Assembly (NCBI GenBank): GCA_048885925.1 | Contig: JBHLLG010000096.1 | Coordinates: 1-10,898 of the forward strand | Direction: 5' to 3' | Length of the DNA: 10,898 nucleotides | Source: Candidatus Hermodarchaeota archaeon | GTDB lineage: Archaea > Asgardarchaeota > Lokiarchaeia > Sigyniarchaeales > SOKP01 | Position numbers and translations under genes: made by a program | Shown: positions 1 through 10,898 of the stretch, piece by piece | Layout: each line of letters begins with the position of its first letter | How positions within the stretch are numbered: the first letter of the stretch is position 1 | Notes under the pieces: model-generated | Database searches by the model: none | What the model saw: the letters and a program-made list of their open reading frames with translations, nothing else | Told to the model about the DNA's origin: nothing

Positions 1-1064
1 ACTGTTACAATCTCGTCTTTTCGAATACTTTCTGAATTACTCTTTTTTGACTCAATTATAGTTCTAACTTCTGTAACCATTGGATCCTCAGCTTTAATAA
101 TCTTAGGCTTAATTTTAGACTCCAGTTCTTTTAAGTAATCGTTGATATCTTTCTCTTTTATGGTATTTAATTTTGTAATGGGATGAATTGTCCCGAACTG
201 AACATCAAATACAAAATCTTTATCAAGTTTTAATAAATAAAAGCAGTTATGGCATCTAAAAACATGTGGTATTTGAGCAATTGAGCTTTTAGCCCATTGT
301 GCCCAACATATTTTATGTACTAATGTTCCACATGAAGGACATTGCACAATGCCCTCAGTATCTTCCTGAAAACAAATTGAACAAACGGTAAGTTCATTGA
401 AAGCCTTAGGATTATCAGCCAGACTTGTAAAAAATGCGTAAGTTTCTTTCTGATTGATATTTAATTTATATCTTGAGTATAGATATTCCATATTATATTT
501 TTTTACTACGAGTTCATTCAATAAGGGTTTCAGATCTTGAGCATTCTTTATTTGATAAAAATCTCCATTACCCAAAGTTGCTATCTTTTTTAAGATTTCA
601 TTCTCTTCATTATTATTAGTTTCTAAACTTATTATATCTATATAAAATGGTAAATTCTTAACGTCCTTAGCTAATTTTTCTATTATAGGAAATTGGTCAG
701 GTGGAATTCTGGAAACACTTTCATCTAATAGAACTAGCAATCGAAATAATTTTTCTGAAGTTTTTTTAAAATTTTCAATAAGTAGAGAAAGTGCAATTAA
801 AATACCCGCGGAAGTATTAGCTTTTATAATATTATTTTTTAATAATTTTAAGGTCTTCAGAACATAATCTGGGTCGAGAGTAAAATGATTTAAATAATTT
901 GGTCCATCATGAAGAAATAATACGAAATTAAATCTACCAGATGGGTCAATTTTGCGCTTATTCTTCATAAAATCAGAGATTGCATCATTAACTTGCTTAG
1001 ACTTGGTAATTTCAGGAGAAAAACCATAAAAAATAAGACAATCTTCGCTAATTATTGTTGTCAT
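1..1064 (-). CDS. vWA-domain protein (Rpn10/MERIT40/Ssl1-like) with C4HC3 RING-variant/PHD-like zinc finger; 3' end outside window
   Basis: Manual translation from ATG 1064 is open to the window edge (354 codons): MTTIISEDCLIFYGFSPEI...KNKRKIDPSGRFNFVLF...FRLLVLLD...PFYIDIISL...LKKIATLGNGDFYQI (vWA pattern), then CSIC-x10-CPSC-x4-HKICWAQW...CHNC at 243-383. Absent from the ORF track, presumably because no stop lies in the window. Confidence 0.85.
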   Translation of the reverse strand, partial: MTTIISEDCLIFYGFSPEITKSKQVNDAISDFMKNKRKIDPSGRFNFVLFLHDGPNYLNHFTLDPDYVLKTLKLLKNNIIKANTSAGILIALSLLIENFKKTSEKLFRLLVLLDESVSRIPPDQFPIIEKLAKDVKNLPFYIDIISLETNNNEENEILKKIATLGNGDFYQIKNAQDLKPLLNELVVKKYNMEYLYSRYKLNINQKETYAFFTSLADNPKAFNELTVCSICFQEDTEGIVQCPSCGTLVHKICWAQWAKSSIAQIPHVFRCHNCFYLLKLDKDFVFDVQFGTIHPITKLNTIKEKDINDYLKELESKIKPKIIKAEDPMVTEVRTIIESKKSNSESIRKDEIVT

Positions 1065-1539
1065 ATTTAGTTTAGAGATTTACATTAATAATAAAAATAG
1101 ACAAATATAAATTTCATGAAAAAAATTATCAACTTTAATCTATAAAACCATTTAGACCATCGATTAGGACCAAGATCCCCTCTATTAATTAACTAAAAAT
1201 AATATTTACAACCTTTTTTCAAAATTTTACAACTAAAGTGGATAAAACAAATATAAAAGTAATTCAAGAAGTTAACAGCTTTTTTGGACAATTTTACTAT
1301 TAGTCAAAATTCAAATTAAATTCCTATTTTTTTATATATTTTTGGAGGGAAACTCTAATTTTTTATAATTTTCTTATATTTTGCTATCTATTTTAACAAT
1401 CTTTTTATTAATTTTTTTCTCTCTTAATGGACTCCTTGATAAAGAACCTTATTGAGTTAATTCAAAATTCATAAATGAACTAATGAAAATTGTTAATTTC
1501 TATTAACTAAAGAGAAGCAAAAGGCAAATACGACAGGTA

Positions 1540-2040
1540 TTAACCTTCATAAATTTTATTTTTTTCTGTGTTTTCGTGATTTATTTTTCTGTAAATGGTT
1601 AATGTTCTTTTCTTTTGAGTTTCCAATTTACATAAATAGTCAATCCAGCTAGATAAATTCGTTATTATCTTATTTAATTTAGCAGTGTAGGATTTTAACA
1701 TTTTGTTATAATTAATTTCTTTCGGTCTTTCTTCCACAATTAAAAAACAAAAGGAGATATTTTTCATTGTAATTGAAAGTAAATTTTGGATTATTTTTTG
1801 AGAATGTGCATTATATTCATGTTTCCACTTTTCATGACATCGTCTTCTGTACCATTTTTCAATCAATTCCTTAATAGAGGCAATATCACACTTAAGAGTG
1901 TGAATTTTTTCTAAATAGGGATACTTTCTCCCTTTAATATGAAGGATAATATCAGGAAAATCGTAGTGATCCAAAATATAGAGGATTTCCTTTGTTACAT
2001 CTTGAACAGTTTTATCAACTTTAAAGATTGAACACATCAT
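1540..2040 (-). CDS. Hypothetical protein (~166 aa)
   Basis: ORF track gives 1540..2079. The GTG at 2079 overlaps the upstream zinc-finger ORF, so ATG 2040 (MMCSIF...) is the more plausible start. No family recognised. Confidence 0.6.
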   Translation of the reverse strand: MMCSIFKVDKTVQDVTKEILYILDHYDFPDIILHIKGRKYPYLEKIHTLKCDIASIKELIEKWYRRRCHEKWKHEYNAHSQKIIQNLLSITMKNISFCFLIVEERPKEINYNKMLKSYTAKLNKIITNLSSWIDYLCKLETQKKRTLTIYRKINHENTEKNKIYEG

Positions 2041-2051
2041 TTTTTTCTTTT

Positions 2052-2201
2052 CTACCCCTTTTTTGTACATAAATAGCACTCAACTTCTTCAAATTCCTCT
2101 AAATCACTTCGATAGATGATAATTTTTCCAGTATTACCACATAACTCACATTTATTTACAATTAAAATTTCATTGATAAAATTTCTTTTTTCTAAACTCA
2201 T
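2052..2201 (-). CDS. Small zinc-binding protein (CxxC...CxxC), 49 aa (55 aa if started at ATG 2219)
   Basis: Manual translation MSLEKRNFINEILIVNKCELCGNTGKIIIYRSDLEEFEEVECYLCTKKG*. Two CxxCxxxG knuckles; TTTATATA box at 2233-2226, about 25 nt upstream. Confidence 0.7.
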   Translation of the reverse strand: MSLEKRNFINEILIVNKCELCGNTGKIIIYRSDLEEFEEVECYLCTKKG

Positions 2202-2248
2202 CACAATATCAGATACCATTCTTTCTATATAAAGAAAAATCTAATTTC

Positions 2249-2371
2249 TCAAAATTTTTTCAATAATTTGTTAACATTGCGATATTCTGTAATGATCCAA
2301 TTTATGATATCTATGATGTCCTCTTCATTTAGACTTACTGTATTTAATTCCTTATCCAAATATTGGAATTT
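2249..2371 (-). pseudogene. Diverged duplicate or remnant of the C-terminus of the adjacent ATP-cone gene (or a 36-aa micro-ORF from TTG 2359)
   Basis: YLDKELNTVSLNEEDIIDIINWIITEYRNVNKLLKKF* aligns without gaps to DLNKIFAERIECKEVVSDIMNWVISEHQEVNKLIKHI* (14/37 identical, stop at the same position). Confidence 0.65.
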
Positions 2372-2395
2372 TAAAGAATATATCAGAAAGAAACA

Positions 2396-2424
2396 TCTTC
2401 TCAACCGGGGAAAAAGTTGAAAGA
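2396..2424 (-). terminator. Hairpin followed by U-rich tract directly after the ATP-cone stop codon
   Basis: Minus strand TCTTTCAAC-TTTTTCCCCG-GTTGAGAAGA (stem with one bulge, 10-nt loop), then TGTTTCTTTCT. Confidence 0.35.
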
Positions 2425-2427
2425 GTA

Positions 2428-2862
2428 TTAAATATGTTTAATTAATTTATTTACTTCCTGATGTTCTGAAATTACCCAGTTCATAATATCCGAAACAACT
2501 TCTTTACATTCGATCCGTTCAGCAAAAATTTTATTTAAATCATAAACAGGTAATCCTATTCGTGTATATTGCAATCGTTCTTTCTCAAAACCTTCTTTTA
2601 GTAAATGGACATTAACGATTTCTCTAATAAGTGGAGCAGTTATCAATTTCAAGTTTGCGGTGACTAAAAAACGTACGACCTGTTCTGTTATTTTTTTTGC
2701 ATTAAATTTTGAAATGTTGGTTTCTTTTAGAAGGGATTGATAAATAAATCCTGGGTGAAAAATATAAGTCCCATTTTTAGTATGGACTTTAGGCAAAAAT
2801 TTAGCAAAGTTAGGCTGTAAATCGCTCCATTTTTTACTTTTTATAGACAATATTAAGAACAA
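2428..2862 (-). CDS. Stand-alone ATP-cone domain protein resembling the N-terminus of archaeal class III ribonucleotide reductase NrdD
   Basis: SLLKET...AKKITEQV...ITAPLIREIVNVHLLKEG...YTRIGLPVYD matches the ATP-cone plus following TRxGxPVYD segment of archaeal NrdD; no catalytic domain. Start uncertain (TTG 2862 or 2850). Confidence 0.75.
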   Translation of the reverse strand: MFLILSIKSKKWSDLQPNFAKFLPKVHTKNGTYIFHPGFIYQSLLKETNISKFNAKKITEQVVRFLVTANLKLITAPLIREIVNVHLLKEGFEKERLQYTRIGLPVYDLNKIFAERIECKEVVSDIMNWVISEHQEVNKLIKHI

Positions 2863-2971
2863 GTTTATAATTATTTAAATTAAAAAAAATAAGGATTGTA
2901 AATAACTAATTGTAATATTGGAGTATATATTATATTAGATATACTGATTTCATTTAATTATTATTGATTTC

Positions 2972-2985
2972 AAGAAATATATAAA
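2972..2985 (+). promoter_or_regulatory. Putative BRE/TATA box for the U32 gene
   Basis: AAGAAA-TATATAAA, starting about 26 nt upstream of ATG 3004, suggesting a leaderless start at 3004. Confidence 0.3.
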
Positions 2986-2994
2986 ATCCTTTAA

Positions 2995-4239
2995 ATGAAC
3001 ATTATGCTTGAAAAAAGAGTAGAATTAATGGCTCCCTTGAAAAACTTTAAATCTTTAAATGCGGTCTTAGGTAAAGCAGATGCCGTATATTTTGGTGTTG
3101 AGTCCTTTAATATGAGAATGTTCAGCGATAATTTCAAACTAAAAGACTTAAACAAGATAGTTAATGTTTGTCATGATAATAATACTCATGCTTACTTAAC
3201 TACAAACATCGTAATATATGAAAATGAATTCCATCTTTTAGATCAAATATTAGATAAAGCGGTAGAGGCAGAAATTGATGCTGTAATTATTCATGATATA
3301 GGAGCGATCCAATTAGCGAAAAAGAAAGGTTTAAACTTTCACATATCAACGCAAGCTAACATTTCTAATTCTCAGACAGCTATATTTTTTGAATCATTGG
3401 GAGCTGAAAGATTAATTTTAGCACGAGAATTATCATTAACACAAATTAAAGAAATTAAAAATAAACTAACCAAAGTCGAAATTGAAACTTTCGTACATGG
3501 TGCTCAATGTACTTCAATTTCAGGCCGATGTTATTTTTCAGCTGAGATTTGTCAATCTCAAGATTATTCAGCAAATAGAGGAAAATGTATTCAACCATGT
3601 AGAAGGAATTGGCGAGTTATTGATGATCAAAATAATGAGATACTATATGATGGGGTATTCTTTATTAATACAAAAGATCTATGTATGATTGAACATATTC
3701 CAGAATTAATTGATGCGAAAATAGATGCTTTTAAAATTGAAGGTCGAATGAGAGATCCAATCTATATTGAAGAGACCACTTCATGTTACAAGGAAGCTAT
3801 TGATGCCTATTATGATAATAATTTCACGCAAGAAAAGGTAAAAAGCTGGTTAAATCGGTTAAATAAGGTATATAATCGAGGTTTTTCTACAGGATTTTAT
3901 TTTGGAATGCCAAATGGCAGCGAAATACAACGAGATTTTGATGGAAATATCTCAGATTATAAAAAAGTTGAAATAGGGAAGGTATTGAATTATTACCCTC
4001 AAAAAAAAGCTGCAAAAATTCTTTTAACTTCGGGACAACTTAAATTAAAAGATGAGATTTATGTTATAGGGACTCACACAGAAACGTATCTAAGACAGGT
4101 AATAAATTCTATTCAAATTAAGCAAAAGAAAAACTTAACAGAAACCCCCTATATTTCCTCCAAGGAAGAGCGAATAACTATTGGAATTACTGTTGATAAA
4201 CCTGTTAAAAAAAATGATAAAATTTTCAAATTAGAATAA
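2995..4239 (+). CDS. Peptidase U32 family protein (TrhP/RlhA-like Fe-S RNA hydroxylase family)
   Basis: ELMAP, ADAVYFG, HISTQANISN, ILARELSL, FVHGAQCTSISGRC...NRGKCIQPCR (4 Cys), FKIEGRMR, NRGFSTGF motifs and a C-terminal beta-rich domain. Start may be ATG 3004. Confidence 0.93.
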   Translation: MNIMLEKRVELMAPLKNFKSLNAVLGKADAVYFGVESFNMRMFSDNFKLKDLNKIVNVCHDNNTHAYLTTNIVIYENEFHLLDQILDKAVEAEIDAVIIHDIGAIQLAKKKGLNFHISTQANISNSQTAIFFESLGAERLILARELSLTQIKEIKNKLTKVEIETFVHGAQCTSISGRCYFSAEICQSQDYSANRGKCIQPCRRNWRVIDDQNNEILYDGVFFINTKDLCMIEHIPELIDAKIDAFKIEGRMRDPIYIEETTSCYKEAIDAYYDNNFTQEKVKSWLNRLNKVYNRGFSTGFYFGMPNGSEIQRDFDGNISDYKKVEIGKVLNYYPQKKAAKILLTSGQLKLKDEIYVIGTHTETYLRQVINSIQIKQKKNLTETPYISSKEERITIGITVDKPVKKNDKIFKLE

Positions 4240-4378
4240 GGATAAAAATTTTTTATATTAGGGATCTATTTATTAAAGAAGAACTCATCAAAACTCCCTT
4301 AATTAATATATTAAAATTTTGATACTGAAAAAGCGAGGTCTAAAAAAAATTAATTATATTTACCAAAATAAGGAAATC

Positions 4379-5683
4379 TCAATCCCAAGTTGGCTTTTTT
4401 ATGCTCTCATCATCATCTTCAGAATGTATACGTTTTAAATCTATATCTTGATAACCTGGAAGAACTCCTAACATTCTTCTCATAGCAAATTCAACATCCT
4501 TCGCTGAAGCAATAAATCGACCAACTATTAAGATATCTGCTCCTTGATCTATTGCATATGTTGCGGTACTAGGTTCAATTCCTCCAGCAACTGCAACTAA
4601 TACTCTATCTCTTCCTGAGGCTTTCTTTTGACCAGCATAAATTTCTTTAATTTTAGGAACTAAACCCCATCTAGCTCTCTGTTCCGCATCAGGAGACTTA
4701 TCTCCCACGGCAGATTGCTCAACATCAATAGCTCTATGGATTATAACAACATCAGGGATTTGTCTCAAAGATTTTAATTTCTCAAGAGGATTTTCAACTT
4801 CCATTGTATCAACAAAAGCGTGTATACCAAGTCGTTGTGCTTCTAAAATGAATTTATCGAGTGAAGAAGATGAAGCTAATCCACTTGCTACAACTCCGTC
4901 AGCAGTGGCATCAAATGCAAAGTCAACCTCTAATTTTCCAACATCTAAAGTCTTTAAATCAGCTACAATAAATTTATCTTTAGCAACCTCTCGAATTTTC
5001 TTAATCGATTCTACACCATACTTTTTTAGAAATGGAGTACCAACCTCTAAAATAATACGATCACTCTTTGGCAATTCCTTGACAACTTTCATTTGTCTCT
5101 CTAAAGCGGGATGATCTAATGCCACTTGGATATAGGGTGGACGCCAAAGCCTAGGAACTCGTATTCCAGCAACAGGGTGTTTTGCTCTATCTTTATCATA
5201 AAATATTTTCTCAATTGGAGGATATCCTTTTAAAGCTCTCTGGATTGCTAACTTTGTAGCACCATAGTTATATTGATAAATTTTACGATAATCTTCAGCT
5301 GCAGGATGTATATATACACTTGCAATTATTAACCAATCGTCTATTTTATTTAGAGGAATAATTCCTTCTTCTACAGCATCGGCTATCCCTTTAGCAACAG
5401 CTGCTTGAGCAGGACCAAAGATTTTGCTTGCATCTTCCATCTTACTAATTGTTACTTTAGGGACAATAATGGTATAAGGACGTGTTAAAAGATTTGGGCG
5501 AATTCCTGCAAGTAATCCTCCATGTCCTTTTGATGGTTCACTTAATGCGCTTGCAAATGAAATTCCTATAGGTCCATTTTTAGAACCAATTACTAAATCT
5601 ACATGAGCTAAATTTGGGTCTTGATTATCACCAACAAGAGCTTCACCGACAAAATATTCAACAGCTTTAGGCATAATTTTCAC
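4379..5683 (-). CDS. fae-hps: Bifunctional formaldehyde-activating enzyme / 3-hexulose-6-phosphate synthase
   Basis: N-terminal Fae (VGEALVG, AHVDLVIG, RPNL, FGPAQAAVAKGIADAVEEG, YNYGATKLAI); C-terminal HPS barrel (QVALD, LEVGTP, VADLKTLDVG, HRAID, AVAGGI, IVGR). Start GTG 5683 or ATG 5674. Confidence 0.95.
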   Translation of the reverse strand: MKIMPKAVEYFVGEALVGDNQDPNLAHVDLVIGSKNGPIGISFASALSEPSKGHGGLLAGIRPNLLTRPYTIIVPKVTISKMEDASKIFGPAQAAVAKGIADAVEEGIIPLNKIDDWLIIASVYIHPAAEDYRKIYQYNYGATKLAIQRALKGYPPIEKIFYDKDRAKHPVAGIRVPRLWRPPYIQVALDHPALERQMKVVKELPKSDRIILEVGTPFLKKYGVESIKKIREVAKDKFIVADLKTLDVGKLEVDFAFDATADGVVASGLASSSSLDKFILEAQRLGIHAFVDTMEVENPLEKLKSLRQIPDVVIIHRAIDVEQSAVGDKSPDAEQRARWGLVPKIKEIYAGQKKASGRDRVLVAVAGGIEPSTATYAIDQGADILIVGRFIASAKDVEFAMRRMLGVLPGYQDIDLKRIHSEDDDESIKKPTWD

Positions 5684-5901
5684 AATTGATATACTTTACT
5701 TTAAACTCAAATTTCTGTATATTTTGTAGATATTTTTTATTTATAATAGTGTGTTTTATAGATAACATAAAAAAATTGCGTATCTACATTTTTCTAGAGT
5801 TAATCTTTTATTAATAAAATTATCCTTGAATAAAAATTCAAATAGACAAAAAAATTAATATAACATTTTATCTAATTATGAGGTTTTCTTCAATTTTTCT
5901 A

Positions 5902-6237
5902 TTAATTCGTTTTAATATTATTGATAGAATCAATTTTCCAAAGGAATTTTTTGAGATCCACCTTAAATTCATCTAAAAACTCAATTCCTTCTTGTTTTAA
6001 TAGATTTTTTTGATATTCTCGATCTTCAACAGATTTCAAAGCGATTAATCCTTTTGAATTGATAACACGGTGCCATGGAAGATTATACTTTTTTGTAGAT
6101 GAATGTAAAATCCATGAAACTTGTCTAGCGGCAGTTGGATTTCCTGCTATTTTAGCGATAAATCCATAAGTAAGGACTTTCCCTTTTGGAATACTTCTAA
6201 TAATGTAAATGATTTTTTCTGTAAATTCACTTGGGAT
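5902..6237 (-). CDS. Alkyltransferase-like protein (ATL, MGMT family, non-catalytic PWHRV type), 111 aa
   Basis: Manual translation (M)PSEFTEKIIYIIRSIPKGKVLTYGFIAKIAGNPTAARQVSWILH...LPWHRVINSKG...QKNLLKQEGIEF...VDLKKFLW...*. No in-frame ATG/GTG/TTG at the 5' end; ATC 6237 follows a GGTGAT SD-like motif. Confidence 0.9.
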   Translation of the reverse strand: MPSEFTEKIIYIIRSIPKGKVLTYGFIAKIAGNPTAARQVSWILHSSTKKYNLPWHRVINSKGLIALKSVEDREYQKNLLKQEGIEFLDEFKVDLKKFLWKIDSINNIKTN

Positions 6238-6265
6238 TAAATATCACCATATCAGTTTATAAGTT

Positions 6266-7615
6266 TTAATTATAAGATTGATCACGATATTTCTCAACAT
6301 CTTTTGCTTCAACATATAATTGTTCCAATTTTTCTTTATTTAATTCTCTTGTCTCGAATATGATGTGATTGCAATCATATTTAGTAAAATCATTTTCAAA
6401 AATATTTATACCGAAATATTCTCTCTCGTCCCACAAACGAGATCCTGGATACGGAGTTGCCACAAAATAGTTCAATTCATCATTCTCGTCTAATGGTAAA
6501 GATTTTATGTATTCTAAGGTTTGAAAAAAGCTATGCTCAGTTTCTCCTGGTAAACCTAGGACAAAGTAAACTTGAATAGCAATATTGTATTTCTTTAGAT
6601 TTTCAATTCCAATTCTCACTTGTTCTGGATTTTGATATTTGAAATTAGTTTTGAGAACAGTTTCATTTGCAGATTCAATCCCAGTAGCTATTACTTGACA
6701 TCCTGCTTCTTTTAATAACCTTGCATCTTCAGAGGTTATTGTATCTACGCGAAGTTCACACCCCCAACGAATTTTAATCGTATTTTCAATAAACATCTTA
6801 CAAAAATTTCTGAAAAAACCTCTATTAATGTTGATATTATCATAAAAGTTGATATGAGTATAAGTTTGTAAAGATAAGATATCTCTTATTTCTCTAAGAA
6901 TTGATTCGGTACTTCTAATCCTAGTATTTTTAAATAAATTTTGTCTAGAGCAAAATGAACATTGATATGGACAACCTCTATTAATAATAACATTTGCTAC
7001 GGTGTAATAATAATTATCTTGAGATAATTTGAAACGCGCAGGTAAAGGTAAGGTTTCTAAATCTATTTGGCTTGTGCTAGGATTATATTTTAATTTTCCC
7101 TTTGAATCGATAAAGGCAATACCTTTAATGGATTGGAGTTGACTTTCATAATTGCTCAACTTTTTTTTATTTTCAATCTGAATTGTTAATATTTTAACTA
7201 ATTGCAAAAAAGAATCCTCAGCTTCTCCAATACACATAAAATCAATAATATTTTCAGTTTTTTTATCATGTTCTAAAATTTGTTTATATGTAAATGAAAC
7301 ATGTGGACCTCCTAAAATAACATAGTTACTTCCATCTTGATTTTTAATGATTCTTGCGATATGAAGAGCAAGATAAAAAGTATTAGTAAGAGCGGTAATC
7401 CCAAAAATCTTATTACCTTTCACCTTTTCTTTAATTACTTTTTCTAACTCAGAATTGTTTAAATCTATAAATTGCTCAAGATCTAAAATTTCAACAGGAA
7501 TATCATTTGAATCTAAAATAGCTGCTAGATACAATAAACCTGTATTAGGTTCTCTAAAAAAATGAGATCGAACCTCTGAGATTTTTGAAGTCCTTGGATT
7601 AATTAGTAGAATCAT
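6266..7615 (-). CDS. B12-binding domain radical SAM protein
   Basis: N-terminal cobalamin-binding motifs (PxxGLLYLAA, ILGGPHVS, GEAE), RGCPYQCSFC (CxxxCxxC), GIES, FVLGLPGET, TPYPGS. Confidence 0.93.
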   Translation of the reverse strand: MILLINPRTSKISEVRSHFFREPNTGLLYLAAILDSNDIPVEILDLEQFIDLNNSELEKVIKEKVKGNKIFGITALTNTFYLALHIARIIKNQDGSNYVILGGPHVSFTYKQILEHDKKTENIIDFMCIGEAEDSFLQLVKILTIQIENKKKLSNYESQLQSIKGIAFIDSKGKLKYNPSTSQIDLETLPLPARFKLSQDNYYYTVANVIINRGCPYQCSFCSRQNLFKNTRIRSTESILREIRDILSLQTYTHINFYDNININRGFFRNFCKMFIENTIKIRWGCELRVDTITSEDARLLKEAGCQVIATGIESANETVLKTNFKYQNPEQVRIGIENLKKYNIAIQVYFVLGLPGETEHSFFQTLEYIKSLPLDENDELNYFVATPYPGSRLWDEREYFGINIFENDFTKYDCNHIIFETRELNKEKLEQLYVEAKDVEKYRDQSYN

Positions 7616-7635
7616 CTTTATAATTAATTCCTATC

Positions 7636-8442
7636 TCAATCTCTCTCTTTTTTTTCGTTATCTTCTGGTATTTTTTTAGGAATTTGGAATGCGTTAGTTA
7701 ATGAGTCGATTGATCTAGGTTTATTAAATTTATCTTCTTGGAAGATTGGTATCTCTAATTTAATAGAGGGAGATTTATCTTCTTTGTTAATGTAAAATTC
7801 AATTCCTTGTATCATTCGGTCTTTTATAATTAATCTCGTTGAGTAGTTATGATCTTGAAAGAAAGTAAAGCCAGTATTCAATCTTCCTAATTTTATTGGA
7901 GTTATTTTGACTTTTTCTTCTTTTAGAAATGATTCTGTGACTTCTTCATCAGTAAATATCTTATCACCTATTACTATAAATCTTCGAATAAGATTATCGG
8001 GATGACGAATTTGATTTACATATTCTAACGCCTTACTGATGTTTGGATTTGAAATAGAAATGTTTCCGGTATATTTATCAGGAGTAAGTTCTGGAAAATC
8101 TTTCTTCTCGATCGGTTTAGCTCGGCCTGCACCAATTGGTTTATCAAGTAATTCAAGAAATTCCTTATCTTCTCTAGAATAGATATTTAATGAATATATC
8201 CTATAAAATAATCTCATTTGCTGTCTAAACATCCCTGCTAAAATTCCACTAAAAATTTGAACTTTAAAAGAACTATATAGTCCATAATATGTCCAAATTC
8301 GTTTAGTATCATGATCTATAAGTATGTAAACTTTGTTATTGTTTGTATCATTTAAAATATCACTAACAACTTGCCCCTGAACTACTTCCTTTGTTACCAT
8401 ATAAGGAAATTCTTGTACTTCAAGTACTTCAAAAATTTGCAT
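7636..8442 (-). CDS. Putative Asgard gelsolin-like single-domain protein with C-terminal extension
   Basis: L...KVYILIDHDTKRIWTYYG..SS......A..FR fits the gelsolin/villin repeat pattern (hhhhD...IWxWxG..S...helix) recalled from Asgard proteins; recognised by eye only. Confidence 0.55.
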   Translation of the reverse strand: MQIFEVLEVQEFPYMVTKEVVQGQVVSDILNDTNNNKVYILIDHDTKRIWTYYGLYSSFKVQIFSGILAGMFRQQMRLFYRIYSLNIYSREDKEFLELLDKPIGAGRAKPIEKKDFPELTPDKYTGNISISNPNISKALEYVNQIRHPDNLIRRFIVIGDKIFTDEEVTESFLKEEKVKITPIKLGRLNTGFTFFQDHNYSTRLIIKDRMIQGIEFYINKEDKSPSIKLEIPIFQEDKFNKPRSIDSLTNAFQIPKKIPEDNEKKERD

Positions 8443-8463
8443 AGAGGAATATCTATATTTTTC

Positions 8464-8471
8464 TTATATAA
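8464..8471 (-). promoter_or_regulatory. Putative TATA box for the gelsolin-like / radical SAM / ATL gene run
   Basis: GAA-TTATATAA, 22-29 nt upstream of ATG 8442, consistent with a leaderless transcript. Confidence 0.35.
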
Positions 8472-8616
8472 TTCTAATAGTTTATTCACTAAAATAAATT
8501 TCATTATCATTGCTAGTAAGGAAGTATTTCTAAACATTATAATTCCATAAAATTTTTATGAAAAAATACATTTTAAAAGTTAATCTTGCTTTTATGTGCT
8601 TTTAAATTGATACATC

Positions 8617-9015
8617 GTGTCTTCTGAAAAAATAGTATATAAACTGAATATCAGTGGCGGAAATGATGGACCTGGAAAGGGATTATCTAAGCTCATTGAG
8701 ATTGATGAAAAGAAATTTCGATTTGAAGGGATGAAGATTGGAGATACTATTAAAGGTGGTGTCATAGGATTTCCAAACTATGAATTTACTATTACCGGTG
8801 GTTGCGATTATAGTGGATTTCCGATGAGAAAAGATGTTCAAGGGCCAATTAAAAAGAGAATTCTTGTTTCTAAAAGAGGAATTGGATATAAACCGAAAAG
8901 AAAGGGACAAAAAAGGAGGAAAACAGTTCGAGGTAACGAGGTTACCCATGATATGGCTTTGATAAATTTGAAAGTAATAAAATACGGAGAAGCTGAACTT
9001 TTTAAGAAGGAGTAA
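8617..9015 (+). CDS. rps6e: 30S ribosomal protein S6e (eS6)
   Basis: KLNIS, GMKIGD, ITGGCDYSGFPMR, GQKRRKTVRGN, INLKV motifs. Confidence 0.97.
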   Translation: MSSEKIVYKLNISGGNDGPGKGLSKLIEIDEKKFRFEGMKIGDTIKGGVIGFPNYEFTITGGCDYSGFPMRKDVQGPIKKRILVSKRGIGYKPKRKGQKRRKTVRGNEVTHDMALINLKVIKYGEAELFKKE

Positions 9016-9043
9016 AATTTAGCAAATTCGGAGTTAATTAATA

Positions 9044-9226
9044 ATGGTAAAAGTAAAAAAGTGTAGTTTCTGTGGTTATGACATCCCAATAGGGAAAGGG
9101 TTTATGTTTATAAAACGGGATGGTCAAATTCTGAATTTTTGCACCAACAAGTGCCGAAAAGCTATGCTTGATTATAATAAAAAAGCAAGAAAGACAAGAT
9201 GGACTGCCCATTACGGAAAACAATAA
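9044..9226 (+). CDS. rpl24e: 50S ribosomal protein L24e (eL24)
   Basis: CSFCG.DIPIGKG.MFIKRDG....FCTNKC...RKTRWT signature. Confidence 0.97.
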   Translation: MVKVKKCSFCGYDIPIGKGFMFIKRDGQILNFCTNKCRKAMLDYNKKARKTRWTAHYGKQ

Positions 9227-9273
9227 TATATTATATTAGTTCTACTTTTTCTAAGGCTTATAAAAAATTAAAA

Positions 9274-9327
9274 TTATTGTAATCGTGGAAATTTGAGTAA
9301 TTCATCGATCAAATCTATATAACCAAT
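9274..9327 (-). repeat. Second, synonymously recoded copy of the rpoN 3' end
   Basis: ATT GGT TAT ATA GAT TTG ATC GAT GAA TTA CTC AAA TTT CCA CGA TTA CAA TAA = IGYIDLIDELLKFPRLQ*, beginning 1 nt after the rpoN stop. Confidence 0.9.
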
Positions 9328-9328
9328 T

Positions 9329-9560
9329 TTACTGTAGTCTTGGAAACTTAAGGAGCTCATCTATTAGATCCACATGACTTATGCTTAGAAAGCGTAAGTG
9401 CTTACTAATCTACAATCATGCGTTTACAACAGAAGCGCTCAATTCCAAGCTCCTTAAAAGCTTTTTCAGAGCTTTCCCCTTTTTCTAACATCTCAAGGTA
9501 CGGTTTATAAACATGAGCAATTAATTTGCCGCAACTGAAGCAGCGGATTGGTATTATTAT
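9329..9560 (-). CDS. rpoN: DNA-directed RNA polymerase subunit N (Rpo10/RPB10), split into two exons (9560-9410 and 9378-9329); 66 aa after removing 31 nt
   Basis: (M)IIPIRCFSCGKLIAHVYKPYLEMLEKGESSEKAFKELGIERFCCKRMIV, then after a 31-nt insert and in another frame (G/S)HVDLIDELLKFPRLQ*. This is the canonical IPxRCxxCG...CCxRM..xHVD signature. Confidence 0.95.
9379..9409 (-). other. Candidate 31-nt bulge-helix-bulge mRNA intron in rpoN
   Basis: Contains in-frame TAG TAA and shifts the frame. Exon-exon stem CGCAUGA/UCAUGUG, central UUGU/GCAU, 3-nt bulges AGA and AAG, inner stem UUAG-U-AAGC/GCUU-U-CUAA with a 6-nt loop. Confidence 0.8.
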
Positions 9561-9567
9561 GGTAATT

Positions 9568-9574
9568 CTCCTCC
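9568..9574 (-). promoter_or_regulatory. Shine-Dalgarno motif of rpoN
   Basis: GGAGGAG, 7 nt upstream of ATA 9560, the codon aligning with the conserved Met1. Confidence 0.7.
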
Positions 9575-9783
9575 ATATTTTCAATTATGGTAAATATTTT
9601 TAAAATTCTATGTTTTAAAGTATCTCTAAACTAAGATTAATTCTGGAATAGTAAATGAACCCTTTAAAAAAAGTTTTACTATTATCTATTCTTAAAAAAA
9701 GAAAATTATCTAATACCTGCGGATATTAATTTAAGTTCTTGAATATTAAGATTTTATTTTTAATTGATATTGAGAGTCGTATA

Positions 9784-10632
9784 TTAAAAAATTTGAAGAT
9801 CTTTCCCTGAAACTACTTTTCCATAATATTTTTTCTTAACCTCAGCTAAAAGTTCTTTTTCACTTGCACCCCAAAAAAGTTGATGATAAAGAATCAATAA
9901 ATCAGGTTTTACTTTAGAAGCAATATTTGCAAGTTCATTTGAGGATGTGTGTACATTAGAATGATATCTTTTCCAATTAGGAGGTAATTTCTCCAATCCA
10001 TTTGAAGAATAGACTTCATGAATCAAAATATTGCATCCTTTATAATAATCAAAACATTCATCAAAAGGAGCTGTATCACCTGAGATTGTAATTATTTTTT
10101 TAGGTGTAATAAACTTAAATCCATATGAAGTTAAAGTTCCATGATTAACAGGGAAAGCTTCTACAGTTATATTCTCATCTTCGTAAATGAAATTAGATTG
10201 TATTTCACTAACTTTAACATTGTATCCTGTTTCATTTGCAGGTTCCAAGCCTTCTAATCTCTCTTTAATATCAAGATGATATGCTTTTAGTATATAGTCT
10301 GTCATTTCTTGAGTTCCCAAAGGGCCATAGATCTCAAGAGGCTTAGATCGTCCCATAATCCATGGAGTTAATATAAGATCTGGATAACCAAGGGTATGAT
10401 CTGAATGCAAATGGGTTAAAAAGCCTTTAGTTAATTGAGAAGTTTCTAGCGATTTAATTCTAAAATTTGAATAAGCTAAATATGTTTGACGGGTGATTCC
10501 GACACCAAAATCAACTAAATATGAAGAATTGTTCACAAGTATTGCTAATGCAGGACCAAAACGCATAGGATCAGGATTAGGATTTCCTGTCCCCAAAAGT
10601 ATAATTTTAGGTTCTTTTGGATTTAATTTCAT
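9784..10632 (-). CDS. MBL-fold metallo-hydrolase, RNase Z/BN (AtsA/ElaC)-like
   Basis: LLGTG.P, LVDFG.G, FLTHLHSDHTLG (HxHxDH), VNHG, ISGDT, LIHEV, HT, LYH motifs. Confidence 0.92.
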   Translation of the reverse strand: MKLNPKEPKIILLGTGNPNPDPMRFGPALAILVNNSSYLVDFGVGITRQTYLAYSNFRIKSLETSQLTKGFLTHLHSDHTLGYPDLILTPWIMGRSKPLEIYGPLGTQEMTDYILKAYHLDIKERLEGLEPANETGYNVKVSEIQSNFIYEDENITVEAFPVNHGTLTSYGFKFITPKKIITISGDTAPFDECFDYYKGCNILIHEVYSSNGLEKLPPNWKRYHSNVHTSSNELANIASKVKPDLLILYHQLFWGASEKELLAEVKKKYYGKVVSGKDLQIF

Positions 10633-10898
10633 ATGATCATCTTTATGATTTTTAAAATAGCTAATCTCTTCTAAGAATTAATTTACTATTAATTATAGTG
10701 CTATGTTTATATTTATAATTCTTAGTTGTTTGATTTTTTGTGGTTCTTCTCATAATAAAATTTATGAAATTTTTTGATTTTTTACCCAAATGAAAAATTT
10801 TATTTAATCTCTACAATTACCTTTATCATTCTAACTCGATGATTTATGAAAATATATCTAAAATTAAATATATTTGAATGAGTGTGATTAAAAATTTC

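Follow-up and report, generated by a model that had tools for sequence, protein, structure and literature searches.

How does an archaeon obtain a complete RpoN, a subunit of its RNA polymerase, from a gene that is split by stop codons? The question is raised by a stretch of 10,898 nucleotides from a Candidatus Hermodarchaeota archaeon of the phylum Promethearchaeota (assembly GCA_048885925.1, contig JBHLLG010000096.1, positions 1 to 10,898; this whole stretch is called the window), whose minus strand encodes rpoN (Rpb10). An original prediction, made from the letters of the window, had proposed that a bulge-helix-bulge (BHB) intron interrupts the gene and that its removal by the tRNA-splicing machinery may serve as a regulatory switch. 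We find the BHB-intron reading well supported by comparison across the genus, and we consider it probable, with real room for doubt, that the intron is one module of a selfish homing cassette that occupies a codon of rpoN and is removed as a BHB intron.

The insert in rpoN

The PF01194 match to rpoN covers 9557-9411 (E 1e-21) and model positions 1-49 of 58. Exon 1 (9410..9560, minus strand), delimited by this match and by translation, encodes IIIPIRCFSCGK...CCKRMIV and also contributes the junction codon's first base; its frame 1 runs up to 9410, reading ...CCKRMIVD, and then meets TAG TAA. The missing protein end, HVDLIDELLKFPRLQ-stop, lies downstream on the minus strand in frame 2. Excising 9409-9379 (31 nt) links the two frames through a Gly codon and gives a product of 66 aa counted from the first Ile. 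Exon 2a (9329..9378, minus strand) thereby supplies the last two bases of the Gly codon, the protein end and the stop TAA at 9331-9329.

The BHB-type mini-intron (9379..9409, minus strand) extends from the last base of the first bulge to the second base of the second, within a motif that spans 9371..9422 on the same strand. Read from the sequence, this motif consists of an outer helix (9422-9416/9377-9371), a central helix (9415-9412/9384-9381, with one U.U), two bulges (9411-9409 and 9380-9378), and an inner stem (9408-9400/9393-9385) closed by a loop (9399-9394). The original prediction had described the same insert, coordinates and frames, and each helix, bulge and loop that it named is present in 9371-9422. 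RNAfold assigns -22.8 kcal/mol to 9432-9360 (z -3.71), and 1 of 200 shuffles is as stable. Left unspliced, the mRNA would yield a 51-residue protein that retains the four zinc-binding cysteines and loses the C-terminal helix. An intact rpoN elsewhere would have pointed to a pseudogene; a Pfam profile search of the window's own genome (95% complete) found no second copy.

Conservation across the genus

Two comparison sets were used, one of 53 species genomes of the genus and one of 40 related genomes, 16 of these from other genera. Among the 40, the PF01194 match ends at model position 49 in six genomes of the same genus, the window's own included, and all six have the 31-nt insert at the identical codon. 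A covariance model built on these six carriers (R2), with a threshold of E<=1e-6 in the genus scan, matched 10 of the 53 genomes at the same codon, adding four carriers (G046, G051, G054 and G058); the other 43 gave no match, and rpoN was uninterrupted in every non-carrier read. In the 40 related genomes R2 found no copy besides those in rpoN at E<=1, which rules out a repetitive element, and the 16 from other genera gave no match. The best 80 rpoN loci of the species-genome collection include 78 with the N-terminal motif, three that are interrupted and one that runs off its locus.

In the alignment of the ten carriers (A2), 89.5% of cells are paired, compared with 32-51% in slid controls, and double changes are seen at five base pairs, of which the inner stem has four and the central helix one. 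None of 500 shuffles of A2 attains the observed percentage paired, the number of double-changed cells or the covariation score; one attains the observed count of double-changed pairs. The nine pairs of the inner helix are paired in 90% of cells, with double changes in four of them. The seven pairs of the outer helix are paired in 95.7% of cells; they are invariant, and uninformative because coding constraint maintains their sequence. Both bulges measure 3 nt in all ten carriers. Inserts with compensatory pairing at this site in Asgard relatives, which the original prediction had suggested seeking, are thus found in 10 of 53 genomes.

The insert, 31 nt long except in G046 (30 nt, the loop being one base shorter), contains stop codons and parts exon 1 from exon 2a in every carrier. 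Across the ten species, 19 of 48 nucleotide sites of exon 2a are variable, 13 of them third codon positions, and the encoded 15 residues are identical throughout. Exon 2a is under purifying selection and is presumably translated after removal of the insert. These counts bear on a rival account of the locus, that rpoN is broken, being a pseudogene, an assembly error or a gene whose 51-residue product suffices, with exon 2a not expressed. The annotated frame does end after 51 residues, and the one metagenome run with a contig across the insert may be the source sample and so not independent. However, the same structure occurs in ten separately assembled species genomes, the gene is single-copy, and exon 2a combines its 19 variable sites with zero amino-acid changes; we leave a broken gene hardly any probability. 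Occurrence in ten genomes, covariation and the conservation of exon 2a together argue that the insert is real and that the exon is read in the restored frame. Assembly artefact, pseudogene and recoding were rejected as explanations on the ten carriers, the comparison of inserts and the conservation of exon 2a.

Probable splicing of the insert

The archaeal tRNA-splicing endonuclease EndA cuts after the second nucleotide of each BHB bulge. This rule, on which the original prediction had relied, restores the conserved frame in all ten rpoN carriers, and it does so as well in the gene for elongation factor EF-1alpha of three species (see below). The window's own genome encodes one catalytic EndA subunit (PF01974, E 7e-29) and one copy of the ligase RtcB (PF01139, E 5e-171), and ARAGORN calls introns in 19 of its 31 tRNA genes, the intron mode of the program being permissive. 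A two-subunit enzyme of broad specificity is described for Asgard archaea (PMC5829648; preprint 10.64898/2026.10.13.758758), and in this respect PMC5829648 is at odds with the single subunit found here. Among the tRNA calls of this genome (G000) is a tRNA-Pro at 82388-83811 with a 1335-nt 'intron', which may be a false call or else contain an open reading frame (ORF).

As an intervening sequence the insert has a conserved BHB shape, and splicing of the rpoN pre-mRNA by EndA and RtcB appears the likeliest route by which it is removed. Together with the intron hairpin and a central helix of 4 nt, the helix between the exons would expose two 3-nt bulges, EndA would cleave within each, and RtcB would ligate the exons to give the 66-residue RpoN with its conserved C-terminal helix. 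The ribosome might instead skip the insert, by a bypass during translation like that of phage T4 gene 60, or by programmed frameshifting. The GTA before the insert recurs at the 3' end of the insert (GTA-A...GTA-A) in 8 of 10 carriers, and the stop codon and hairpin that follow the first GTA are reminiscent of the take-off and landing sites of gene 60. Yet the window's own genome and G054 have no matching landing codon, and landing in G022 would put Cys at a position that is Ser or Gly in relatives. In G046 the exons share one frame and are separated by in-frame stops, so that exon 2a stands in frame 0 behind two stops; no single frameshift, +1 included, can rescue all ten carriers. Bulges that stay at 3 nt and a covarying central helix agree with the geometry of EndA, and the EF-1alpha insert, which has no repeated codon, fits the same cutting rule. 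We therefore regard skipping by the ribosome as very improbable, and excision as a BHB intron as the better account of how exons 1 and 2a are joined.

A displaced gene end and linked endonuclease genes

Past a spacer of four bases (9325..9328) after the exon 2a stop, the minus strand of the window holds, in frame 3, a second copy of the C-terminal exon (9274..9324). We call this copy, overlooked in the original prediction, the relic, and it appears to be the displaced original 3' end of rpoN. Its first part, 9324-9316, is degenerate, with G-Y-I for G-H-V; 9315-9274 encodes DLIDELLKFPRLQ and a stop. Intact relatives align to the window until 9315 and resume at 9412, and 9315-9274 therefore occupies the position of their rpoN 3' end. 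Exon 2a is, judged by its sequence, the putative replacement 3' exon of a cassette. The resident side of this cassette is marked by the convergent ORF at 9044..9226 on the plus strand, which we take from its sequence pattern to encode ribosomal protein L24e and which adjoins rpoN in most relatives.

The relic is present in seven of the ten carriers, degenerate in G001, and not seen in G054 and G058; it starts within a few bases of the insertion site. It lies downstream of exon 2a past a spacer of about 60-125 nt in G016, G023 and G046, and about 1.5 kb downstream in G008, G051 and G022. In the latter three and in G001, the roughly 1.5 kb between exon 2a and relic holds an endonuclease ORF on the opposite strand. 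Around its exon 2a stop the window has bases that, by eye, resemble those preceding the relic of G023, and this suggests that a microhomology deletion produced the window's arrangement. An alternative 86-nt intron reaching from exon 1 to the relic was considered and rejected: by eye, its 5' half has no pairing partner, and G054 and G058 have no relic. The relic of G046 (L162), about 150 nt past exon 2a, retains H-V, and the 14 bases before it equal the intron 3' end plus the start of exon 2a; this duplicated 3' splice-site half may hint at how the cassette originated, or it may reflect recent gene conversion.

An unbroken endonuclease ORF occurs in G008 (488 aa), in G051 (486 aa, 72% identical to that of G008) and in G023 (494 aa); those of G022 and G001 are fragmented. 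LAGLIDADG_3 (PF14528) reaches 24.5 bits, above its cut-off of 22.5, and hits 10 of the 13 members of the family. The two motifs, YYFGLLLA(D/E)G and LLGFYDGDGEE, with their acidic residues kept, are invariant or conservatively changed in four orthologues. A structural model of the core domain (predicted local distance difference test score, pLDDT, 88; predicted template modelling score, pTM, 0.88) has 55 Protein Data Bank (PDB) matches at E<=0.001; among the matches listed, all are LAGLIDADG enzymes or maturases (TM 0.43-0.58), including bI3 maturase, I-SceI, PI-SceI, I-AniI and the archaeal intron-encoded I-DmoI and I-Tsp061I. The ORF is thus predicted to encode a LAGLIDADG-fold homing endonuclease with a presumed DNA target. 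Over the ten carriers, the gene is intact in three, broken in two and absent near rpoN in five, a pattern of invasion, decay and loss.

This association could be coincidental: the intron would be real and spliced, the relic would be a tandem duplication of the gene end in one ancestor, and vertical descent with many losses and ordinary recombination would explain the rest. Against coincidence, the endonuclease gene sits exactly between exon 2a and relic in four carriers, and further evidence that separates this account from the homing cassette is given below.

Endonuclease paralogues (about 30% identity) are scattered through the genus, and at 30 endonuclease loci duplicated gene ends were found only at rpoN. 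Viral contigs yielded only three distant relatives (26-29% identity). As further intron sites at paralogue loci, the aIF5B gene in L146 was rejected, being uninterrupted through the G domain, as were two aminoacyl-tRNA synthetase genes (L129, L139), uninterrupted in the N-terminal parts covered. In L140 and L148 (G020), paralogues adjoin genes for leucine-rich-repeat proteins, which recalls HeimM2; this mobile element of Heimdallarchaeum combines such a protein with a homing-endonuclease homologue, and what was available of its description mentions no mRNA intron (PMC8813620). In G012 (L121:1489-4212), a 907-aa ORF just after an intronless rpoN joins a long N-terminal extension to the endonuclease domain. 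The rpoN of this genome has Thr in place of Val at the insertion site, and G012 may be immune to the endonuclease by this mutation.

A second case in EF-1alpha

The EF-1alpha genes of three of the 53 genus genomes, G005 (L124:1211-1350, minus strand), G001 (L168) and G044 (L169), have a 32-nt hairpin insert 63 nt after the ATG; in G005 it splits the coding sequence between GHIDHGK and STMMGAM. The insert forms a perfect 4-bp central helix between two 3-nt bulges, with an outer exon helix that is almost absent, and a cut after the second bulge base restores G-K-S-T in all three. The structure is 85.7% paired, without covariation in these three sequences. An endonuclease paralogue lies directly upstream of EF-1alpha in each carrier, complete in G005 (511 aa), 422 aa or longer in G044 and reduced to a remnant of 201 aa in G001; a paralogue beside each of the three inserts again speaks against coincidence. 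No duplicated N-terminal exon was seen near EF-1alpha. The EF-1alpha gene of the window's own genome is uninterrupted.

Evidence for mobility

Contigs from three other studies (X5, X8 and X10) match 9150-9315 with one other letter, which is also found in the contig of metagenome run X1. After 9315 they continue with 13 letters and then with 9415-9497, with 6-7 other letters. Read by hand, rpoN is continuous in this allele (...R-M-I-V-G-H-V-D-L-I-D...), and the last 42 bases of the gene equal the relic of the window. These contigs therefore represent a population with a near-identical downstream flank, no intron, no exon 2a, and an exon 1 that differs by about 8%. An intronless allele on such a flank in other samples argues for a mobile cassette and against a chance association inherited by vertical descent. 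A 30-base unbroken stretch of exon 2a had 0 matches in the metagenome contigs.

The codons CGC (Arg) and GTA (Val) directly upstream of the intron are common to all ten carriers, whereas among 97 intact rpoN records, which include some genomes twice, CGC occurs in seven, GTA in 11 and both in none. Farther upstream, exon 1 resembles that of each species' own intronless relatives. The codons that hug the intron look like short co-conversion tracts, and their restriction to carriers, with the rest of exon 1 following the host lineage, also speaks against coincidence. The two C-terminal exons differ likewise: among the first carriers, an Arg codon is AGA in six of six exon 2a copies and CGA in five of five relics. 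Compared with exon 2 of intact records, four relics agree at 39-40 of 42 positions, the G008 relic at 34 and exon 2a at 35-38; exon 2a and relic of one species share 29-34 of 42. By these counts exon 2a and the relics are apparently different sequence lineages. In G054 and G058, which have no relic, the exon 2 tails are relic-like, and this fits a recombination between the two copies that deleted the part between them.

A flank tree of S6e, L24e and a 268-aa neighbour was made by quick search. With 68 loci, five carriers fall in at least three well-supported groups, interleaved with intronless species; with 72 loci and nine carriers, at least six changes are forced. An approximately unbiased (AU) test rejects a single carrier clade (delta lnL 486, p 8.9e-7), with the reservations that the tree rests on three linked genes and that the tested group is defined by the trait itself. 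At least six gains or losses among nine carriers again disfavour coincidence. Few carriers, a near-identical intronless allele, a scattered tree and the link to a LAGLIDADG gene and relic form the signature of a selfish mobile element. One locus of the tree, L090, comes from a record titled Nanopelagicaceae bacterium, yet its rpoN and flank group within the Promethearchaeota loci; it is probably a mis-binned contig.

The same distribution bears on the regulatory switch of the original prediction, by which the host would control EndA/RtcB splicing to tune RNA polymerase assembly. In the comparison with HAC1 and XBP1 that it drew, non-spliceosomal cleavage at paired stem-loops is followed by RtcB-type ligation, and the cut, made by IRE1, acts as a stress switch. 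The 51-residue unspliced product, with its zinc-binding cysteines and without its C-terminal helix, makes a dosage effect conceivable. At rpoN, however, there is no sign of regulation, the predicted nuclease is EndA, and no sensor or regulated nuclease is associated. The intron is polymorphic and patchy: 43 of 53 congeners have no intron match, non-carrier genes are uninterrupted where read, and strains with a near-identical flank are intronless. Moreover, the linked selfish gene and the relic account for the intron without host benefit. We consider a regulatory role quite improbable, and this part of the original prediction was not supported.

The proposed homing cassette

A homing cassette is the reading that accounts most economically for the locus. 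In the proposed cassette, the order is mini-intron, replacement 3' exon with stop, opposite-strand free-standing double-motif LAGLIDADG gene, and displaced original 3' end. The endonuclease would cut intronless rpoN at or near the insertion codon, and in the repair, for which exon 1 and the relic would serve as homology arms, the endonuclease gene would be copied together with intron and exon 2a. The intron would split the recognition site and make carriers immune, as in collaborative homing, and exon 2a would keep the essential RpoN complete. Its synonymous divergence may discourage a crossover that leaves the endonuclease gene behind. After fixation the endonuclease gene would erode and then be deleted, and the window, with intron, exon 2a, four bases and relic, would represent this late stage. 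Last, recombination between exon 2a and the relic could leave a lone intron.

Several observations weigh against this reading. As to the fold, the minimum-energy structure of RNAfold is a 9-bp outer helix with a 5x5 internal loop, in which no BHB is drawn, and the central helix consists of three standard pairs plus a U.U in nine of ten carriers (U-G in the other). A second EndA subunit was not found in the window's own genome by tblastn with the detected subunit (next best E 1.5). As to the endonuclease, five of ten carriers have no such gene near rpoN, and the window's own genome has no homologue at E<=1e-5; in G023 the gene is found outside the interval from exon 2a to relic, upstream of rpoN and on its strand; and that of G012 adjoins an intronless rpoN. 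The full-length model is poor (pLDDT 50), and PDB sequence searches with the endonuclease gave no matches. As to mobility, X1 is the sole run with a contig across the insert and may be the source sample, and the AGA codon of exon 2a holds in eight of ten carriers, G054 and G058 having CGA; the duplicated genomes among the intact records and the limits of the flank tree count here too.

The link between intron and endonuclease is thus circumstantial. The carriers that have no nearby endonuclease gene, its other position in G023, its presence beside the intronless rpoN of G012, a cleavage that is presumed and a three-gene proxy for the tree are what coincidence would lead one to expect. Set beside the four carriers with the complete order, the EF-1alpha paralogues, the near-identical intronless flank, the codons next to the intron and the repeated gains or losses, they leave coincidence, in our judgement, unlikely. 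More tentatively, and with slightly more doubt than conviction, we extend the homing cassette to a general scheme, in which EndA-dependent mini-introns in essential genes (rpoN and EF-1alpha) would pass from species to species through a family of free-standing LAGLIDADG enzymes that is diversifying, the intron acting as an immunity device and the recoded exon and displaced gene end as homology arms.

Translation start and flanking region

Translation of rpoN likely starts at ATA 9560-9558 (minus strand), with GGAGGAG (9574-9568) seven bases before it; this assignment is uncertain, and the ORF listing places the start elsewhere, at TTG 9584. The conserved Met position of the window's rpoN has no ATG, and several congeners have ATA, ATT, ATC or even GTT there, which suggests near-cognate initiation.

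The orientation of rpoN relative to L24e is reversed in G012 and in the carrier G054. On the other side of rpoN, window positions 9600-10766 are missing from most relatives, in which sequence matching 10767-10898 stands about 25 bp to 2 kb upstream of rpoN; the upstream side is thus also a variable insertion spot. This segment holds an ORF (9784-10632) that by eye has the look of an MBL-fold hydrolase.

Comparison with known systems and significance

The nearest precedent for the intron itself is crenarchaeal cbf5 (Desulfurococcales, Sulfolobales), in which a short BHB intron in the pre-mRNA is removed by the tRNA-splicing endonuclease (PMC2738675), its presence and loss being lineage-specific (PMC2738675, PMC5829648, PMC6379350). 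The rpoN case likewise is a short BHB intron within a gene that codes for protein, with lineage-specific presence. It differs in the gene (rpoN, with EF-1alpha in relatives), in the phylum (Promethearchaeota), in the accompanying homing-endonuclease gene and duplicated gene end, and in being polymorphic among close strains; cbf5 splicing was shown by experiment, whereas rpoN splicing is predicted from sequence.

For mobility, the 16S rRNA genes of Thermoproteales offer a parallel. According to PMC4496867, ORF-less hairpin BHB introns of <50 nt, as in Pyrobaculum, are co-converted with a neighbouring endonuclease-bearing intron (Pog.S1205 with Pog.S1213), and the nearby LAGLIDADG endonuclease cuts the intron-minus allele at the site of the hairpin intron. 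There an rRNA gene is the host and another of its introns carries the endonuclease; here the host is mRNA and the endonuclease is free-standing, outside the coding sequence, with a replacement exon and a relic in addition. Collaborative homing was described in cyanophage S-PM2, where the free-standing F-CphI stands beside a psbA group I intron that blocks self-cleavage, the enzyme cutting intronless alleles (PMC6083498). Its gene layout, an ORF-less intron with an adjacent free-standing endonuclease gene, is matched in five of ten rpoN carriers and three of three EF-1alpha carriers, with the cutting presumed here. The phage intron of S-PM2 splices itself as a group I ribozyme, and its enzyme is of the Endo VII type, whereas ours is presumed to depend on host EndA and RtcB and its enzyme is a LAGLIDADG protein.

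The third parallel is in fungal mitochondria (Allomyces atp6; Glomus atp6, atp9, cox2 and nad3), where PMC3630166 describes a foreign C-terminus followed by an endonuclease ORF and the displaced native C-terminus, the native piece being near-identical to that of close relatives and the inserted piece divergent in DNA, not in protein. The same order is seen in G008, G051, G022 and G001, and the relic of the window is identical to the intronless allele over 9315-9274. The fungal hybrids are fused in phase without an intron; here a 31-nt BHB intron marks the junction, on an archaeal chromosome. Our full-text literature searches turned up no earlier report of an rpoN BHB intron, as the original prediction had supposed, nor of a BHB mini-intron at such a hybrid junction in a chromosomal Asgard RNA polymerase gene with a sister case in EF-1alpha.

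The host genes belong to core transcription (rpoN) and, with a paralogous enzyme, to core translation (EF-1alpha). Gene callers truncate RpoN and EF-1alpha in such genomes, and marker-gene sets can be distorted as a result. A single genus displays the full cassette, a decaying endonuclease gene, intron with relic, lone intron and empty site, which are the stages of a plausible cycle of gain and loss. It offers a testable system for mRNA splicing by tRNA machinery in Asgard archaea, for lateral exchange of essential-gene sequence between species and for new meganuclease specificities. In the literature found, cbf5 is the sole well-documented archaeal protein-gene intron family. If the general scheme is true, no mobile BHB introns in mRNAs would precede these, and they would provide a working mechanism of protein-gene intron gain in the archaeal lineage nearest to eukaryotes.

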